From a virus, in the UHGV virus genome UHGV-0291998: 12,507 nt of DNA. One strand, 5' to 3'. Numbering within the stretch: the first letter of the stretch is position 1; every line of letters starts with the position of its first letter. The position numbers and the translations under genes are program-made. The notes under the pieces are model-generated. The model worked only from the letters and a program-made list of their open reading frames with translations, searched no databases and was not told the DNA's origin. Positions 1 through 7,582 of this stretch are shown here, one piece after another.

Positions 1-507
1 CAGCAGGATCCCCGCGTTATTCGGGATATACGGGAGCAGTTTTTTGGCAATATGTAAGCCCTGGCCGACACAGCCGTACTGCCCTTTGCTCAGGTCTGCC
101 TTCGGATGATTCAGCGTACTCATATCCTGCACATCATGCAGGCAGTGGTCGGCCGGAATAATATCGTTATATCTGCAGGCAGCCCCACCCGGCGTCACTG
201 TACTGCGGCGCGCCAGCTGTTTAATACGCGGATCCGGAGCATCGTATGAATCCGGCAGCGGAAGCCCTTCACCGTAAGCCATGGCATTGGACTGCCCGGC
301 CAGTACGATGACGTAGTACCACTCCGGCTCAGTTGCACCACTGACCACCACATCACCTTCTGCTGCAATCGCCTGCATCAGGGTATAAGGGGTTATGGCC
401 ACCGGACTACCAAACGGCTGCCAGCCCTCTTTCAGTTTATGTGTCAGCTTTTCCGCAAGGTCTGACGGCGACGCCGCCCTGACAACATCATAATGTTTAA
501 TCGACAT
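1..507 (-). CDS. NanS-p-like sialate O-acetylesterase (SGNH/SASA hydrolase), 5-prime part only; gene continues past the window start
   Basis: Reverse-complement reading from ATG at 507..505 (GGGAG-type RBS about 8 nt upstream on the minus strand) gives MSIKHYDVVRAASPSDLAEKL...WYYVIVLAGQSNAMAYGEGLPLPD... The GQSN block is the nucleophile motif of SGNH/SASA esterases, and the N-terminal ~50 aa resembles the DUF1737-type segment of prophage NanS-p proteins (from memory). The frame is open to position 1, so it is absent from the ORF track. Confidence 0.6.
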   Translation of the reverse strand, partial: MSIKHYDVVRAASPSDLAEKLTHKLKEGWQPFGSPVAITPYTLMQAIAAEGDVVVSGATEPEWYYVIVLAGQSNAMAYGEGLPLPDSYDAPDPRIKQLARRSTVTPGGAACRYNDIIPADHCLHDVQDMSTLNHPKADLSKGQYGCVGQGLHIAKKLLPYIPNNAGILL

Positions 508-953
508 CGAATTTCTCCCGTGTACAGGAACAGAGTTAAAAAGCCGGAACCGGAATCAAATTACAGGATGGCCATCTGCCAGTGGCTGGTCGTAAAAAAA
601 AGGCCACGCCATGCGCAGCCGGAAATAAAGGGATAACGATGATAGTTTGAGAAAAACAGAAACAACACTTTTGTGGCAAAGCATGGTGCCGGGTGCCTCC
701 CGGTGAATTCAGTATCAGCACCTGAATCCGCGATTATCCCATATACCTGGTTGCTGATCGCCCCTCCGCACAGGGGGATTCACCATGCCAGTTTCTTTTA
801 ACAAACTCCCCGCAAACCAGACAACAGTCAACCGCCTGAATTGTGAGGTATTTAAAAATTTCAACGGGTAACTGATACCCTGCTAATCGCCTGATGCTTT
901 CTTTTTCAGCAACGGGAAAGCAACAACCACCACACCCACCAGCCGCCCATTTA

Positions 954-985
954 CCACAAATAAAAAAGCCTTCAGGACTGAAGGC
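954..985 (-). terminator. Rho-independent terminator for the minus-strand gene 972..1169
   Basis: Minus-strand RNA forms GCCUUCA-GUCC-UGAAGGC (stem-loop 968..985) followed directly by UUUUUUAUUU (954..967). The hairpin overlaps the stop codon of the 65-aa gene. Confidence 0.6.
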
Positions 986-1169
986 GTCTGTAACAACCGA
1001 ACTGATAGTCTGCCAGACCCGCCATAACCAGCTGGGTCAGTATTAACTGGCAGCGTTCGCGTGAAAGGTAAGTATTCTGCGCAATCTCCCCGACGATCGC
1101 CGGTTCGGTGACGCTTAATTCATTAAACACCACTCTGGCGGTTTCGGTCATATCCTGCTGTTTCAGCAT
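972..1169 (-). CDS. Small PapI/FaeA-like winged-helix regulator (65 aa), putative
   Basis: ORF-track protein MLKQQDMTETARVVFNELSVTEPAIVGEIAQNTYLSRERCQLILTQLVMAGLADYQFGCYRRLQS. The pattern xxEIAxxTxxSxxxxxxxLxxLxxAGxx matches PapI/FaeA-type regulators as I recall them. Own terminator downstream. Confidence 0.45.
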   Translation of the reverse strand: MLKQQDMTETARVVFNELSVTEPAIVGEIAQNTYLSRERCQLILTQLVMAGLADYQFGCYRRLQS

Positions 1170-1366
1170 GTCTTTTTCCGGTTAACGTGACACACCAATA
1201 ACTCTTGTCGAAAAAGCCAGCAAGCTGAAAGACCGGTATTCACCGCCGCCAGCGCGTTTACTGTACTGGACCGATTTCAGCCATAAAAAAACCCGCTCGC
1301 GGCTGGTTTAAGCTGTGTGGCGTAGTAACCACTCTTAACATACTGACATACTTTTTGCGGACCGCG

Positions 1367-1759
1367 CTAATCATTTTTTACTTTTTTGGGCAGCCAGTCG
1401 TCCATCTCCAGCCTTACACCCAGCATCGACAGACATCCGTCAATAAATCCTTCAGCAATCTGCATCTCAATTCGTATTGCCTTTTCGCTCTTCTTTCTTG
1501 TTCTGGCAATCTGCCTTTTTGATATGCGCAGCAGATAATGAGCTACCAGCAGCGAATACTCGTCCGGTTTTTTCTTCTTCAGGCGCGTAAGGCAGTTTTC
1601 GATGATAAGGCCGTCATCATCGCTGCAGGCCGGGCGAGGTTTAGCGGTGGATGGTAAAAGGCCTTTAAATCCAGCAGCTATCGGAGAATAGTCCACCCCG
1701 GCGTTACCACTTGCCGCCCATGCCCCCCAGCGTTCGAGAACCATCTGAATATCACGCAT
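1367..1759 (-). CDS. Late-gene antitermination protein Q (Q82/QuuD-type)
   Basis: Track ORF 1367..1768; the internal Met at 1759 gives MRDIQMVLERWGAWAA...FKGLLP...CSDDDGLIIENCLTRLKK..., near-identical in its opening to the E. coli cryptic-prophage Q homologue QuuD as recalled. Start overlaps the stop of the upstream gene by 1 nt (TAATG). Confidence 0.85.
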   Translation of the reverse strand: MRDIQMVLERWGAWAASGNAGVDYSPIAAGFKGLLPSTAKPRPACSDDDGLIIENCLTRLKKKKPDEYSLLVAHYLLRISKRQIARTRKKSEKAIRIEMQIAEGFIDGCLSMLGVRLEMDDWLPKKVKND

Positions 1760-2616
1760 TATTCGCACTCACCAACCAGATTGAGAATGACCGCTGCACC
1801 GTCGTCTTCCATGCATTCACCCTTACCACTTGCCAGAAACCAGCGGCACACCTCCACGGCTTCAGCGCGTGTCACCGGTTTGATGGTTGCCAGCAATTTT
1901 TCAAGGTAGCGCTCCCGGTCATATACCGATTCGTGATGCTCAGAGTAACCAAACTCATCGCCCTGTTCTTTAGTTGCAGTGTGGCGAACACTGTAGAGCC
2001 AGTCCCAGTAAACGAACTCGCGAACAACATCAGACAGCGTATAAGGCTCAGGCAGCACATCGCGATATCCATCAACAAATGCCCGACGCTGTTCATCAAT
2101 TTCGTTCATGCGGCTGCCGCCAATGCTTCCGGCTTTTTTCTCTGCCGCAGTCCAGCCCCAGAGATGATCGTTGATAAATTTCTGGGAAGACCTGATGACC
2201 CGCTCTGCTTCCACATCTTCGAGCGCTGCTTCATAGCTACCAAACGTAGCCCTGACTGATGCCGCTTTTTTGATGTTCTCCCGGGCGTTCCTGATAACCT
2301 GCGCAGGGTTATCCATGCCGATGATGCCGAACGCAACCTGGAAAGGTTCGTAACCATTCGCCAGCAGATAACGCGAATAGCGTTCCTGAGCCTCTTTTGG
2401 GGAAATTTTAATTTTCACCAGCGCAGCCTCAGCAGCATCCAGATGTGCGGGTTCGTTCAGACGGATAACCTCCAGCACCCAAAGATAAGCATCAGTCTGC
2501 TTATGCCCGGTGATTCTCCGTTGCTCTGGCAGGGGCTTGATGTTTGCGAGGGCGGAGCTGTACGCTGCCGTCGGGATGGTGAATAGTGCTTTATGTTCGT
2601 TATTATCAGTACGCAT
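1759..2616 (-). CDS. Hypothetical protein (285 aa), between primase and Q; function unknown
   Basis: Long ORF whose start overlaps the primase stop (TAATG at 2614..2618) and whose stop overlaps the Q start. No motif I can assign by eye. Confidence 0.55.
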   Translation of the reverse strand: MRTDNNEHKALFTIPTAAYSSALANIKPLPEQRRITGHKQTDAYLWVLEVIRLNEPAHLDAAEAALVKIKISPKEAQERYSRYLLANGYEPFQVAFGIIGMDNPAQVIRNARENIKKAASVRATFGSYEAALEDVEAERVIRSSQKFINDHLWGWTAAEKKAGSIGGSRMNEIDEQRRAFVDGYRDVLPEPYTLSDVVREFVYWDWLYSVRHTATKEQGDEFGYSEHHESVYDRERYLEKLLATIKPVTRAEAVEVCRWFLASGKGECMEDDGAAVILNLVGECE

Positions 2617-3584
2617 TACGCAACCGCCTTTTTCTTATGGAAAACCAGCTCTCGAACCTGATCACCGTTCATGAGCATATTGTTGAAATCATCGTGATCC
2701 GGCCAGTACACGCTCACGCGCTGCAGGTCATTCTTTGCCATCAGATTGGCATGAGCACATTCGCAAGCCGCAGCCAGCCCGGTGGCGCTGTTCTCGTCAC
2801 GGTCGGCAAAAATAATCAGGTGCAGAACACCAGCTGGTACGCGAAACTTTTTCATAAAGCCGCTGTTAATGGTTGCCCAGGTGTTCACGTTATAAATCTG
2901 GTGCGCTGACAGCGCTGTTTCGATGCCTTCGGCGATACCCAGAGTGCTGGCGACAGGAAACATGCGGATAGCTACAGAACGAGCGTGATCCAAATAGTTA
3001 TCTTCCTGCAGGGATTTGAGGCGCTTTGCACTGCTACCGATATCTGCTTTTTTATCACCATCAAGCAGAGTCTGGTGCAGATAGCACAACTCCCCTTTAT
3101 CGTCCGTAGCAAGTGAATAAAGAGACTGGAACACACTCCCGTTGTGTCTCTGCCTGGCATTGAACCGGATCGCCTCAGCAGGAAGACTGAATATTCCACG
3201 AGAATTAAGATACGCTGCGCCGGATGTACCACGCAGTGCCTCCAGTTTTGAAAACTTGCTCAATACCCGTTTGCGTAAGCTGGTGGCGCTGCTGGTTACC
3301 GGGATTTTAACCCGTTGGTAATCATTACCGATCAGGCGGTCTATTTCGGTACAAATCTCGTTAAATGGCTTCGCCTGTGTCAGGGTGACAAGTTTCATAC
3401 CATCGCCACTACCACATACACAGATCCACGTTCCTGCACCGTCGCGGTCGTCAATTCGGAACTTGCCACGTGCACCGCATACCGGGCATTCACCCTTGAA
3501 GTGATTTTTTCCGGTTATCGGCGGCAGACCGAAGTGCTCTAATATTTCAGGCCAGCGGCCTTTCGCTGCATCTGCTGTTTTCAT
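2616..3584 (-). CDS. DNA primase, N-terminal zinc-ribbon plus TOPRIM domain (DnaG/P4-alpha-like)
   Basis: N-terminus ...HFKGECPVCGARGKFRIDD..GAGTWICVCGSGDG is a primase Zn-ribbon pattern. IAEGIETALS (Glu) and IIFADRDEN (DxD) are TOPRIM signatures. Start codon lies 1 nt after the helicase stop. Confidence 0.8.
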   Translation of the reverse strand: MKTADAAKGRWPEILEHFGLPPITGKNHFKGECPVCGARGKFRIDDRDGAGTWICVCGSGDGMKLVTLTQAKPFNEICTEIDRLIGNDYQRVKIPVTSSATSLRKRVLSKFSKLEALRGTSGAAYLNSRGIFSLPAEAIRFNARQRHNGSVFQSLYSLATDDKGELCYLHQTLLDGDKKADIGSSAKRLKSLQEDNYLDHARSVAIRMFPVASTLGIAEGIETALSAHQIYNVNTWATINSGFMKKFRVPAGVLHLIIFADRDENSATGLAAACECAHANLMAKNDLQRVSVYWPDHDDFNNMLMNGDQVRELVFHKKKAVA

Positions 3585-3585
3585 C

Positions 3586-5244
3586 TTACTGACTCAGACT
3601 GTTTATATTTTTCTGGAGTTGGTGCTTTGCCTGCATGATGCGCCAGGCCTCACTGCCTGCCGGTATCTCACGTCGTTCATCACGTTCCTGAGATAAATCA
3701 ATCGTTGTTTGTGCGTTTTCAGTGACCTTCTGAACCCGCTGGTGGCCTTTGGCAAACCGGATCAGTTTGTGTCTGATGTAGTTATTTACCTCAGGGGTAA
3801 TTTCCATCGGAAAGTTACTCAGTCCGTCAGGCCACTCACCGAACTTTTCCCGGAAAGTGTGAGCACACCATCCGTCACTGACTGGACGCCCCAGCGAAGC
3901 ACGCTGGCGCTGATAAAATTTGATCTGACTCCACCAGGACTGTTTCTCTGCCTTCGTCGACTGATGCTGATTTTTACCCAGCTTATTAAGTTTGCGGCTA
4001 GTGTCAGTATCAACGTCTTCACCTCGCAGCGGCTTGTGTCCACATTTCGGGCAAACATAGACGCCTGCTGGCTTCATGTAGTGGCATTGAGGGCATTCAT
4101 GTGGCAGTTTTTCGGCCCGTTCCTCAACTGCCCGGCGCGCGCTTTCCTCCATGCCGTCAGACTTACCGGGAAGCTCGTCGTACTCGATTGAATCCGGATA
4201 ACCCAAACGGTGCACGGTGCCGCTGTGATCGAAGATAAGGCAGGACTCTTTACCCGGTGCGGTGCGCAGCCCACGCCCGAGAGCCTGCAACCAGCGAATT
4301 TCGCTTTTTGTTGGCCTGGCGTAGATGATGCAACGAACGTCACTATCAAAGCCGGCCACCAGAACGCCCACACTAACGATGATTTTCGTTGCACCGGTTT
4401 CAAAGCGGTGAATGATGGTCTGGCGCTCATCTACCGGAGTGTCGGCGGTCATTACCTCAGCGTTAACACCCGCCAGGTTAAACTGGATTGTCAGATAATT
4501 GGCGTGAGCTACGTTGACGCAGAAAGCGATGGTAGGTAAATCCCGACCATTCTCCAGCCAGTTCTGTACGATGTCGCCCACCAGCGTAGAGCCGCACATG
4601 ATTTCAGCCAGCTGTGTTTCGTTGTAATCGCGGCCGTACTCAAGCGAAGATGTGGTTTTAACACCTTTCAGATCCGGCTTAGTTGGCGCGTAAAATTCGT
4701 ATTTACTCAGATCGCCACGCTGGATTAACTCGCCGATGGTGGTCGGCTTAATCAGTCGGTCATAGTATTTGCCCAGGAACGGAGAAAACGGAGTACCCGA
4801 CAGGCCAATCACCTTTACGCCTTTGCCGCGCAGACGTTCGATATCCTTCAGGATGCGTTTTTTACGCAGGTGCGCTTCGTCGATAATCAGCAGATCGATA
4901 TTTTCAGGAAAAACACGACGAATAAGCGTGTCAGCGCTGGCAATCTGAATTTTCCGGTCCGGATCGTAGTTCGGGTGATCCGCCCAGATATAACCGATTT
5001 CATCTCCAGGTAAACCATACTGCACGAACCGATTAGCCGTCTGACCAATCAGGATGGTGTACGGAACACAGAACAGAACACGCATACCACGGCTGACAAA
5101 ACCAGCAACTATGAAGGCTGCCAGACCCGTTTTACCGCTACCTGTTGGCGAGTAAACCATGAAGGTGTCGTTTGCCTTCCAGTCACGGCGCAACATGTTT
5201 AACGCTCGTTCCTGTGCAAAATTCGGCGTGATCGTCAGCTCCAT
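3586..5244 (-). CDS. Superfamily-2 DEAD/DEAH-box helicase with C-terminal Cys4 zinc finger (phage replicative helicase)
   Basis: Walker A SPTGSGKT, motif II LIIDEAHL, motif III LSGTPF, motif VI QALGRGLR, plus C-terminal CPQCH...CPKCGH. GGAG RBS about 8 nt upstream of the ATG at 5244. Confidence 0.85.
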   Translation of the reverse strand: MELTITPNFAQERALNMLRRDWKANDTFMVYSPTGSGKTGLAAFIVAGFVSRGMRVLFCVPYTILIGQTANRFVQYGLPGDEIGYIWADHPNYDPDRKIQIASADTLIRRVFPENIDLLIIDEAHLRKKRILKDIERLRGKGVKVIGLSGTPFSPFLGKYYDRLIKPTTIGELIQRGDLSKYEFYAPTKPDLKGVKTTSSLEYGRDYNETQLAEIMCGSTLVGDIVQNWLENGRDLPTIAFCVNVAHANYLTIQFNLAGVNAEVMTADTPVDERQTIIHRFETGATKIIVSVGVLVAGFDSDVRCIIYARPTKSEIRWLQALGRGLRTAPGKESCLIFDHSGTVHRLGYPDSIEYDELPGKSDGMEESARRAVEERAEKLPHECPQCHYMKPAGVYVCPKCGHKPLRGEDVDTDTSRKLNKLGKNQHQSTKAEKQSWWSQIKFYQRQRASLGRPVSDGWCAHTFREKFGEWPDGLSNFPMEITPEVNNYIRHKLIRFAKGHQRVQKVTENAQTTIDLSQERDERREIPAGSEAWRIMQAKHQLQKNINSLSQ

Positions 5245-5657: not shown

Positions 5658-5966
5658 TTAAACCCGAAACAGTGAGGAGCGCGATTGCGATCCAGCCAGG
5701 GGAGGTTCGGCTGTATACCCCTGTAAAGCTCTGCCCTGATTTCTTACAAACAGGCGGAGCCTTGTGTTTGCTTCGTGCCTTGCTCTGTTCTCCTTGCGGA
5801 ATGAAACAGGCTCAGCGTCAAAAGTGATTTCGTATACCTCCGCATATTTCAGGGCAACCTTCCGTCTCAGTGACGGAGGCAGCCCCTGTAACTGCTGCTG
5901 AATCCACTCTTCGTCTGCCTGGCAGTACCTAGATGGCATCTCTGTCTGAACGTAATTCTGGGACAT
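5658..5966 (-). CDS. Hypothetical protein (102 aa) downstream of cro (cII-like position); function unknown
   Basis: Track ORF MSQNYVQTEMPSRYCQADEEWIQQQLQGLPPSLRRKVALKYAEVYEITF... AAGGG-type RBS 5 nt upstream of the ATG. Overlaps the 3-prime end of the cro-like gene by about 38 nt. Confidence 0.5.
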   Translation of the reverse strand: MSQNYVQTEMPSRYCQADEEWIQQQLQGLPPSLRRKVALKYAEVYEITFDAEPVSFRKENRARHEANTRLRLFVRNQGRALQGYTAEPPLAGSQSRSSLFRV

Positions 5967-6216
5967 ACAAGCCCTTCACCTCCCCCGTGCGCGCTAAGCT
6001 TGGATGTGGAAAAAGCTCTGGTAGGTCTGGCCGAAATTCATACGCTTGGATCTTTCCGTCGACAGCTGCAACCAATAACGGCACAAATTCTGGTGAAATC
6101 TTGTTCTTGCAGTTCAACCAATCGCAGACTGTTGACTGGGCCTTTCCGCATCGCTTGGCTAAGGCTTGCTGACTTCCAAGAATCTCAATAGCTTTCTCTA
6201 TGGCTTTATGTTTCAT
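5929..6216 (-). CDS. Cro-like HTH regulator of the YdaS family
   Basis: The internal start MKHKAIEKAIEILGSQQALAKRCGKAQSTVCDWLNCKNKISPEFVPLLVAAVDGKIQAYEFRPDL has an AGGAG RBS 8 nt upstream and parallels E. coli Rac YdaS as recalled. The track start at 6267 lacks an RBS and would run into the operator. Confidence 0.7.
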   Translation of the reverse strand: MKHKAIEKAIEILGSQQALAKRCGKAQSTVCDWLNCKNKISPEFVPLLVAAVDGKIQAYEFRPDLPELFPHPSLARTGEVKGLYVPELRSDRDAI

Positions 6217-6283
6217 AATCGCATCTCCTATTGAACGCATAATAACAACAGGAAAAGCGATATTCAACGTTAAACATAGAATA

Positions 6284-6335: not shown

Positions 6336-7028
6336 ATGACATTTTCAGAACGACTTGATTTAGCTATGCGCAACGCAAAATTTACGCAAGGTAGGCTGGC
6401 CAAAGAAGTGGGTATGGCTCAGTCCAGTGTTAATCAACTACTTAACAAAGCCAACGGTTCCAGAAAAACAGTCGAAATAGCAAAAGTTTTGGGCGTTAAC
6501 CCGGAATGGCTCGCATCGGGTGTTGGCCCAATGGAAATCGTGACCTCTGCAGACTCACACCAAATACGTAACATTTCTGAAGATTGGGTTACTGATTCGT
6601 ATGTCGTGGATGTTTTAGACATCAGATATAGTTGCGGACCTGGTAGTTATAACTCTGATTTTCCTGATATTGTCAGATCTATAGCGATAGAACCAGGATA
6701 CGCATCAAGAGTTTTTGGCGGCAGACCAGCATCAGCAATCAAAGCAATAAACGCCCACGGCGACAGTATGAAAGGCACAATAGACCCTGAAGACTTGGTA
6801 TTTGTAGATGTATCAGTTCGCACATTTAATGGTGATGGTATATACGCCTTTACATACTCTGGAACATCGCACATCAAAAGACTTCAAAAAATCAAAGATA
6901 CTCTAACGGTGATATCTGACAACCCAGCTTACAAGGATTGGGCTATCGAACCGGAAGACTTCGAACAACTTCACATTGACGGAAAAGTAATTGTCAGTTG
7001 GCCTATGACACTACACCGTTTTGCATAA
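6336..7028 (+). CDS. CI-type prophage repressor (XRE HTH + LexA-like S24 peptidase domain)
   Basis: N-terminal HTH ...QGRLAKEVGMAQSSVNQLLNKANGSRKTVEIAKVLGVNPEWL and C-terminal S24 core with Ser in AHGDSMKGTI and Lys in SHIKRLQKI. GGGAGG RBS 9 nt upstream. Divergent from the cro-like gene. Confidence 0.9.
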   Translation: MTFSERLDLAMRNAKFTQGRLAKEVGMAQSSVNQLLNKANGSRKTVEIAKVLGVNPEWLASGVGPMEIVTSADSHQIRNISEDWVTDSYVVDVLDIRYSCGPGSYNSDFPDIVRSIAIEPGYASRVFGGRPASAIKAINAHGDSMKGTIDPEDLVFVDVSVRTFNGDGIYAFTYSGTSHIKRLQKIKDTLTVISDNPAYKDWAIEPEDFEQLHIDGKVIVSWPMTLHRFA

Positions 7029-7162: not shown

Positions 7163-7582
7163 ATGAGAAAAATGTCATCGTATATGGGATTACCAACAAA
7201 TCAGCACGATGCTCTTGAGAATATTCAGCTCTTAGTAGGGACTGGTGCACTACTGTATAGCAGCAATAACCCTGAGTTAATTGAACTTGCCAGCTCCATC
7301 CTGGCTGTAACTCAAAAATATAGCCTCACCGCGTCACGTTTATGCAAACAAAATTTAGCTATTAATTCCCAGAATCGGATTCGCACCCAACGCGAAACCT
7401 GCGGCTTAACAACCGCCGAACTCGCTAGGCTGCTCGATCTCGATGAAGAAATTATCATCCAGTGGGAGAGCGGAGAGTACGAACCAACCATCAGCATGCT
7501 TATCCCTCTGGCTAATGTTCTTGGCTGTGATCCAATGTTGTTATTGACTGATGCTTATAAACAAAATCAGGAGGAAGCATAA
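7163..7582 (+). CDS. Protein with unassigned N-terminal domain and C-terminal XRE-type HTH (139 aa)
   Basis: C-terminal ...RIRTQRETCGLTTAELARLLDLDEEIIIQWESGEYEPTISMLIPLANVLGCDPMLLL is an HTH_3/XRE pattern. The N-terminal ~70 aa has no motif I recognise. The start may be the second ATG at 7172 (GAGG upstream). Confidence 0.65.
   Translation: MRKMSSYMGLPTNQHDALENIQLLVGTGALLYSSNNPELIELASSILAVTQKYSLTASRLCKQNLAINSQNRIRTQRETCGLTTAELARLLDLDEEIIIQWESGEYEPTISMLIPLANVLGCDPMLLLTDAYKQNQEEA

Follow-up and report, generated by a model that had tools for sequence, protein, structure and literature searches.

A secondarily reduced late-region entry with an orphan winged-helix gene in the lambdoid prophage genome UHGV-0291998

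The virus genome UHGV-0291998 (12,507 nucleotides; the window, meaning this whole stretch of DNA) carries the antiterminator gene Q and, downstream of it, a non-coding stretch, an open reading frame (ORF) of 65 amino acids with a terminator behind it, and the start of a nanS-p-like esterase gene, all on the minus strand (Table 1). An earlier description made without database searches (the sequence-only reading) had given this layout correctly, and its esterase label is upheld below; the non-coding DNA between Q and the ORF measures 197 nucleotides (nt). It had also taken the 65-amino-acid protein for a PapI/FaeA-like regulator and the locus for cargo replacing stx; neither of these is supported. 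We find that this late-region entry of a lambdoid prophage is of an ordinary and widespread kind, in a secondarily reduced state, and that the 65-amino-acid protein is aptly labelled a stand-alone winged-helix protein of the L23/orf47 family, named after L23 of phage phiP27 and orf47 of phage SfV. A single microhomology-mediated deletion of about 2.2 kb removed the 3' part of a structured RNA leader, a DNA methyltransferase gene, transfer RNA (tRNA) genes, TerB and most of a DUF3927 gene. As a whole, the locus probably serves a lambdoid E. coli-type prophage as the Q-driven entry of its late operon, and is present here as a deletion derivative with an orphan winged-helix gene.

The deletion was located by comparison with loci that carry the methyltransferase. 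Homology of the window to these loci ends at position 932, which falls in the first helix of the leader, on its 5' arm. Window positions 935-818 are 100% identical to positions 7411-7528 of loci L036 and L041, which lie 2.2 kb further downstream, past the methyltransferase and TerB. The breakpoints fall between GCTGGTGGGTGT and TAGGGG in the leader and between GCTGGTGGCGGGTGT and GGTGGTT near the 3' end of the DUF3927 gene, and the junction shows the microhomology GCTGGTGG(C)GGGTGT, of which one copy lies in the leader and the other at the DUF3927 3' end. Remnants of both partners flank the junction (Table 1), and the leader model R1 scores 6.1 bits at window 900-962, compared with 104-175 bits for intact leaders. 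We also considered window 888-931 as unrelated filler, and this was ruled out, as the stretch equals the 3' end of DUF3927. The empty slot is secondary and does not represent a different cargo; as a deletion derivative, the window therefore has an orphaned winged-helix gene and an empty slot, and the microhomology-mediated event accounts for this 'empty' form.

The relatives show what was lost. In 27 of 31 species-representative loci, sampled from E. albertii, Kluyvera, Salmonella, Citrobacter, Klebsiella, Buttiauxella, Scandinavium, Phytobacter, Proteus, Providencia, Mixta and Plesiomonas, among others, the distance from the start of the winged-helix gene to that of an N6_N4 methyltransferase gene (PF01555, E 6.7e-44) is 340-355 nt. 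The remaining four are contig ends or partial matches, and the structured leader is still present in three. Pairing of the two genes is independent of the upstream Q type (window-like, SfV-like, Q21-like or 1447-like) and is maintained at 43-97% identity of the winged-helix protein and 59-95% of the methyltransferase, with flanking Q types and cargo shuffled. Among IMG/VR loci that reach nanS-p (n=42), 30 contain the methyltransferase and 12, like the window, do not. The truly variable slot is the interval from the methyltransferase to nanS-p, in which tRNAs, TerB, DUF3927 or stx2 are found, and STnc100 in most loci. The TerB pseudogene carries a stop codon.

The adenine methyltransferases M.EcoGI and M.EcoGII are non-specific; in the lysogen they are silent, and their expression is harmful (PMC5778455). 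Murray et al. described the enzyme of phage 1720a-02 as 'very similar' to M.EcoGI/GII (PMC5778455), and this enzyme is the methyltransferase adjoining the L23 homolog of that phage. Judged by this remark, and not by the M.EcoGII sequence, the cassette methyltransferase appears to be of the M.EcoGI/GII type.

An element of about 150 nt lies between the winged-helix gene and the methyltransferase gene; it is kept from E. coli to Plesiomonas and is not intact in the window. RNAalifold predicted a long hairpin and a long-range helix, GGUCACAAG/CUUACUGAUC, immediately 5' of the methyltransferase AUG. A covariance model found the leader in all 44 methyltransferase-bearing loci searched, at the scores given above for intact leaders (examples: L008:2005-2154, L093:4208-4358 and L095:4203-4352). 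In the alignment, which was fitted to the model and hence leans toward the structure, 97.4% of cells were paired, compared with 22-40% when partners were slid. Ten pairs had changed on both sides, and none of 500 shuffles reached the observed covariation score or the paired-cell percentage. The frequent exchanges of G-U for G-C or A-U indicate an RNA rather than a DNA palindrome. When leaders of four representative loci were compared with Rfam 15, no match was obtained at E<=1. Vibrio phage VHML (E 6e-10) and phage N15 (E 6e-8) also gave matches to the model, in each case upstream of a homologous methyltransferase; in Aeromonas phage phiARM81ld (E 3e-6) the match lies upstream of a Com-like gene.

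The architecture of the locus is already known: it is found in identical form in public viral contigs, in near-identical form in thousands of E. coli genomes, and in phiP27, SfV and Stx2a phages. Of 5426 complete E. coli genomes, 2268 contain the 65-amino-acid gene with its terminator (216 nt), and a single genome may have up to seven copies. Four proteins were compared between the window and three IMG/VR contigs (L011-L013): the 285-amino-acid protein encoded upstream of Q, Q, the 65-amino-acid protein and the NanS-p N-terminus. All are 100% identical and occur in the same order and spacing.

With tblastn, the gene was found in 55 phage records, at least 30 of which are Stx-converting. The gene order is Q, GIY-YIG, L23, DNA methyltransferase, ileZ, argO, stx2e and holin in phiP27; Q, two reverse ORFs, L23, methylase, ileZ-argN-argO, stx2AB and nanS-p in Stx2a_1447; and Q, L23, methyltransferase and stx2A in phage 1720a-02. 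A methylase of 352 amino acids downstream of Q has been described in some Stx2a phages (PMC10462455). The window and the Stx-phage late regions share a homologous Q-proximal leader, the L23 gene, STnc100 and nanS-p, in the same order. The proposal that the locus is a non-Stx cargo variant of the stx slot does not agree with these gene orders: the 65-amino-acid gene co-occurs with stx and lies upstream of it. Because it is present at this position in Stx phages, we consider it part of the shared backbone and not cargo that replaces stx. Compared with the Stx-phage late entry (Q, methylase, ileZ-argN-argO, stxAB, STnc100/EcOnc27, nanS-p), the window lacks the methyltransferase, the tRNAs and stx, and its Q allele differs from Q933 and from Q of Stx2a_1447. 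A tRNA scan of the whole window found none, and the ileZ, argN and argO genes of Stx phages are absent. The closest relatives, phiP27 L23, SfV orf47 and the 1720a-02 ORF (PHROG 331), share 94-98% amino acid identity with the window protein, the position as first ORF downstream of Q and, in E. coli-type relatives, a terminator-like hairpin after the gene. They differ in having kept the methyltransferase directly downstream, and phiP27 and 1720a-02 additionally carry stx.

Some Stx phages have a longer interval after Q. The segment consisting of core, terminator and L23 lies 1.3-1.6 kb from Q in Stx2a_1447 (L006:3140-3260, 4811-5238) and phiP27 (L005:2462-2555, 3823-4237), and the insert between Q and this segment consists of genes (GIY-YIG, or the two reverse ORFs). 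Directly after Q, these phages have a second promoter-like and terminator-like stretch, with TTGATG-17-TAAGAG in Stx2a_1447.

We conclude that the 65-amino-acid ORF is a real gene. Its product is 98% identical to phiP27 L23 and 94% to SfV orf47, and 332 homologs were found in a collection of 5.8 billion proteins, from Escherichia, Shigella, Salmonella, Klebsiella, Citrobacter and Buttiauxella. Compared with homologs from other genera, nonsynonymous divergence (dN) was 0.04-0.21, synonymous divergence (dS) was saturated or >0.77, and dN/dS was 0.05-0.11 where computable. An AlphaFold2 model built from a 16-sequence alignment (mean predicted local distance difference test score, pLDDT, 92.1) gave a minimal winged helix with helices at residues 9-16, 26-33 and 37-49 and a beta hairpin at 53-62 (H-H-H-beta-beta). 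The predicted recognition helix, CQLILTQL, is nearly invariant across homologs of 43-98% identity. Structural neighbours of the model are generic winged-helix proteins, most of them DNA-binding repressors of the BlaI, ArsR and MarR types. The terminator downstream of the gene (7-bp stem, 4-nt loop, -10.5 kcal/mol) is also present in E. coli relatives with a methyltransferase downstream.

Assignment to a characterized regulator family was not obtained. The protein gave only noise against NCBIfam, and the family profile yielded only weak, generic winged-helix matches among PDB sequences. NCBI names the homologs 'TrmB family transcriptional regulator'; the TrmB score (PF01978) of 13.7 bits falls short of the cut-off of 25.6. 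The 16 family members weakly match 22 other winged-helix families (including DprA_WH, TrmB, MarR_2, HTH_20 and Rrf2), with DprA_WH, TrmB, MarR_2 and others about equally weak. An exhaustive phmmer search of 1.84 billion representatives returned 60 matches, all from the same family and without a bridge to PapI or to characterized regulators, and the family is therefore narrow.

The sequence-only reading had proposed that the protein is a PapI/FaeA-type co-regulator, carried as prophage cargo in place of stx and cross-talking with Lrp/Dam-dependent fimbrial switches. PapI/FaeA proteins (PF04703; PDB 2HTJ) resemble it in size and in consisting of a single winged-helix fold, and hhalign pairs the H1-H3 register of the two at 18% identity. 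A profile search with the window protein gave no match to PF04703 at E<=1, and none of the members of the 16-sequence family alignment matched it even at E<=10. As positive control we used PapI, whose sequence was validated by its matches to PF04703 (6.5e-32) and PDB 2HTJ. BLASTP of the 65-amino-acid protein against PapI gave an E value of 0.14, and profile comparisons with PapI reached probabilities of 38% and 32%, covering the generic H1-H3 register only. Searching all PDB sequences with the family profile did not recover 2HTJ at E<=10. Conversely, all 71 PapI homologs carried PF04703, and none overlapped the L23 family. The two groups thus differ in profile and sequence, preferential structural similarity is absent, and the genomic context is another one: the 65-amino-acid gene is located between Q and nanS-p in a prophage late operon, not next to a fimbrial operon. 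At the family level the PapI-type proposal is already largely refuted, and we regard it as extremely improbable. The label PapI/FaeA-like should not be given to the gene, and nothing justifies a prediction that it affects fimbrial phase variation.

The Q gene upstream encodes a protein of the Q21/QuuD type; its ORF in the mechanical list reaches a GTG at 1768. The protein is a distant homolog of Q21 in structures 6P18 and 6JNX (E 1.4e-7). Five E. coli loci show hardly any variation in the 197 nt 3' of Q (1170-1366), including a locus with other cargo downstream. The binding site of Q21 consists of two 8-bp subsites in direct repeat, beside a sigma-dependent pause element (bioRxiv 10.1101/651190). 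The window contains a tandem 8-bp direct repeat, AGTATGTC followed by AGTATGTT, at +15 to +30 relative to the Q stop codon. The annotated Q-binding elements (QBEu/QBEd) of phage 21 have this offset as well, and the repeat varies in step with the Q allele. By analogy, we infer that this repeat is a candidate Q-binding element. The Q-PR'-QBE-tR' region of phage 21 (Yin, Kaelber and Ebright 2019; OL657228) further resembles the window in its PF06530-family Q and in a hairpin terminator within ~90 nt. It differs in that the Q proteins are distantly related, the repeat is AGTATGTY here and AWTGAGCA there, the window has neither a TTGACA -35 element nor a recognizable pause element, and in phage 21 tRNAs and lysis genes follow directly.

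A -10-like hexamer, TATGTT, is found at 1337-1342. Among 25 loci that share the downstream core TTAAGAGTGGTTACT, about 30 nt upstream of it vary with the Q allele, and every variant contains such a hexamer (TATGTT here; TATGAT, TATGCT, TATCCT or TATCGT elsewhere). In some variants TTTACG is located 16 nt upstream of it. We also considered TAAGAG/AAGAGT as -10 element; when Q-allele variants are compared, TATGTT is favoured, with TATGAT/TATGCT as its counterparts in relatives.

Downstream of the repeat, 25 related loci have kept the hairpin and U-run of a tR'-like terminator; the loop varies among them, and some changes extend the stem. As the stem is almost invariant, we claim conservation alone and not covariation. 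The folding energy is -5.5 kcal/mol in the window compared with -11.7 kcal/mol in the commonest version, owing to a C->A stem mismatch at 1304 that is common to the window and the identical IMG/VR contigs and that might make the terminator leaky. The exact window-type pattern of tR' had no match among GTDB species representatives. Homology of the following untranslated leader (1170-1284) ends exactly at the ribosome-binding site. Here, just 5' of the start codon of the 65-amino-acid gene, the window has lost 7 nt relative to four aligned E. coli relatives in a GGAAAAG/GGAAAAAG direct repeat at 1170-1190 (minus strand), which shortens the purine-rich ribosome-binding region. Three intrinsic terminators were found compared with 1.4±1.4 in shuffled sequences, which is not above chance; they are supported because they are conserved in relatives and not by their count. 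RNA folding of the entire regions 1170-1366 and 590-971 revealed no stability beyond that of shuffles (z about -1).

From this anatomy we infer that expression is likely late and Q-dependent. The Q protein would most likely be loaded at a late promoter that lies shortly after the Q gene, and RNA polymerase modified in this way would read through tR' and the terminators at 958-985 and 592-620. Read-through would transcribe the 65-amino-acid gene, the STnc100 region and nanS-p and then the lysis and morphogenesis genes beyond the window. In nearly all relatives across Enterobacterales, the winged-helix gene forms the first half of a cassette, followed by the structured leader and the N6_N4 methyltransferase; variable cargo (tRNAs, stx, TerB/DUF3927) comes next, with STnc100 and nanS-p after it. 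Late-only expression agrees with M.EcoGI/GII being silent in lysogens and harmful once expressed (PMC5778455).

Our best guess for the native role of the 65-amino-acid protein would be control of the methyltransferase cassette, by analogy with com-mom of phage Mu. In phage Mu, the small protein Com binds the mRNA of mom, a toxic DNA-modification gene, and activates its translation in this way (PMC6483171), and in Mu-like prophages com is paired with non-specific adenine methyltransferases (PMC3299994). As in Mu com-mom and the Mu-like pairs of com and methyltransferases (Hin1523, Hia5), the relatives of the window have a regulator-sized gene directly upstream of a late-operon methyltransferase, mRNA structure over the start region, and an enzyme family reported as promiscuous and host-toxic (PMC5778455). 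The systems differ in that L23-type proteins are winged helices and not Com zinc ribbons, and in that the enzyme and the greater part of the leader are missing from the window. Neither the 65-amino-acid protein nor its family members matched the Pfam family of Mu Com (PF10122, a Cys4 zinc ribbon). Any resemblance to Com would therefore be functional and does not imply membership. N15 gp51 (L124:1006-1233), located upstream of the N15 methyltransferase, is a distant L23 homolog (hhalign 88%), and phiARM81ld (L123:1329-1544) has a Mu Com-like zinc-ribbon gene (PF10122, 27.9 vs 22.9 bits) overlapping a homologous methyltransferase. Thus two unrelated small proteins, Com-like in phiARM81ld and gp51 in N15, occupy an equivalent position before the methyltransferase.

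These comparisons suggest a Com-like role of L23 for the methyltransferase. Tentatively, and with low confidence, we propose that the L23-family protein is a trans-acting regulator of the leader before a promiscuous-type methyltransferase, that is, a non-homologous Com-mom analogue in lambdoid, N15-like and Stx phages. It might bind RNA in the way SelB winged helices bind SECIS. As E. coli genomes contain up to seven copies of the gene, the orphan window protein could act in trans on cassettes of co-resident prophages. In relatives, a useful by-product of the analysis is a deeply conserved cassette of winged helix, leader and methyltransferase just upstream of stx in many Stx phages. This cassette and its leader, which had no Rfam 15 match in four representative loci, are the part worth following. 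If the cassette indeed controls a promiscuous adenine methyltransferase, this would bear on restriction evasion by Stx and lambdoid phages at burst.

Several observations weigh against the reading of a Q-driven late entry with a methyltransferase-linked winged-helix gene. The link to the methyltransferase is guilt by association. The winged-helix ORF is intact in loci without methyltransferase and could have an independent function. No L23 homolog is annotated in VHML, which has the leader and the methyltransferase, and the leader of phiARM81ld lies before the com-like gene instead of between regulator and enzyme. On the promoter side, the hexamer at the position equivalent to the phage 21 -35 element is CCGCAA, and no consensus sigma-70 -35/-10 pair (positions 400-1500, both strands) and no clear sigma-dependent pause element were found. 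Promoter and Q-binding element therefore rest on analogy, which is moreover drawn with a Q that is only distantly related.

Alternatively, the protein would be a late DNA-binding factor with a target unrelated to the methyltransferase, such as packaging, replication arrest or superinfection control, and adjacency would reflect only shared inheritance of a module. The repressor-type structural neighbours, and the leader and methyltransferase without L23 homolog in VHML and phiARM81ld, are consistent with such a factor. However, synteny at constant spacing is observed across deep divergence while Q types and cargo shuffle, and N15 pairs gp51 with the same methyltransferase and leader, so that we find this explanation rather unlikely. 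A further explanation is that the gene is an autonomous moron (promoter, gene and terminator) expressed from the repressed prophage, encoding a regulator independent of both Q and the methyltransferase. It draws on the strong terminator directly 3' of the gene, on the weakened tR', which could permit basal read-through, on the ORF remaining intact in the 12 loci without methyltransferase and on the nearly invariant recognition helix. Intactness after loss of the methyltransferase weighs little, since all E. coli copies are 97-100% identical. A terminator is present, but no promoter of the gene's own was found between tR' and the start codon in the consensus scan, which may miss weak or non-canonical promoters. 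Moreover, in every relative the untranslated leader adjoins the Q-proximal region without a break, and the position as first ORF after tR' together with the tight methyltransferase linkage fits membership in the late operon. We therefore judge an autonomous moron quite unlikely and prefer the Q-driven late-operon entry.

The esterase gene follows the 65-amino-acid gene in order, as described earlier, but not directly: the two are separated by 464 nt (508-971), which contain the two deletion remnants and, absent from the earlier description, an STnc100-family small RNA (sRNA) and a second terminator. The STnc100 match is full-length and corresponds to a region downstream of stx2B in Stx2a_1447. 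In Stx2 phages, STnc100 has been located about 75 nt downstream of stx2B, overlapping the Hfq-bound sRNA EcOnc27 (PMC12370729, PMC12711010), and it has been related to PasD and associated with sialate esterase genes (bioRxiv 10.64898/2026.05.13.724894). The E. albertii locus L093 contains two strong tandem STnc100 copies and one weak copy. The N-terminal part of the esterase matches DUF1737 (E 6e-16) and PHROG 143 (E 3.5e-116), and its RefSeq homologs are named SASA family carbohydrate esterase. The SASA domain itself is cut off by the window edge; it is seen in a full-length homolog with 98% DNA identity (E. coli OkiPb01679), together with DUF1737 and DUF6645 (SASA: PF03629). The nanS-p-like label is thus correct for this predicted esterase.

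Table 1. Coordinates of the features identified in the window
Feature	Position	Strand	Evidence or description
nanS-p-like sialate O-acetylesterase gene, 5' part	1-507	-	ATG 507-505; 169 codons, runs off left edge
Second intrinsic terminator, upstream of esterase gene	592-620	-	8-bp stem (6 GC pairs), T8 run, -12.8 kcal/mol
STnc100-family sRNA (RF02076)	645-817	-	108.1 bits vs gathering score 47, E 2.4e-23, full-length model match
DUF3927 3' remnant (…VVVVAFPLLKKKASGD*)	883-933	-	Last 16 codons and stop; DUF3927 by PF13064
Methyltransferase-leader 5' remnant (helix P1 5' arm)	932-957	-	Identical to L036 5213-5238; homology stops at GGGTGT
Intrinsic terminator after 65-amino-acid gene	958-985	-	Stem 968-985, T-run to 958
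65-amino-acid winged-helix gene, phiP27 L23/SfV orf47 family	972-1169	-	PHROG 331 E 2.3e-36
Conserved untranslated leader of first late ORF	1170-1284	-	Nearly invariant in five E. coli loci
tR'-like intrinsic terminator	1285-1306	-	Hairpin 1292-1306, U-run 1285-1291
Tandem 8-bp direct repeat, candidate Q-binding element	1337-1352	-	Read from sequence
Antiterminator gene Q, Q21/QuuD-type	1367-1759	-	130 amino acids from ATG; PF06530 E 3.1e-52; PHROG 79 E 3.9e-48
285-amino-acid protein gene	1759-2616	-	Directly upstream of Q, overlapping Q start; PHROG 6204 (function not known)
Toprim primase	2616-3584		
Helicase	3586-5244		
YdaS/Cro-like gene	5929-6267		
S24 repressor	6336-7028		
SPFH/Band_7 lipoprotein gene	9547-10374	+	E 8e-31; early-left prophage region
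ORF6N-domain gene	10343-11167	+	Early-left prophage region
IS66-family transposase, C-terminal fragment	12322-12507 (right window edge)	-	PF13817 E 1.3e-17

The 285-amino-acid protein encoded upstream of Q had no Pfam domain above threshold, and its only PHROG match was 6204. Other relatives have a DUF968 protein at this position. The remainder of the window (Table 1) fits a lambdoid prophage, in which the SPFH/Band_7 lipoprotein gene and the ORF6N-domain gene may be accessory or exclusion genes.

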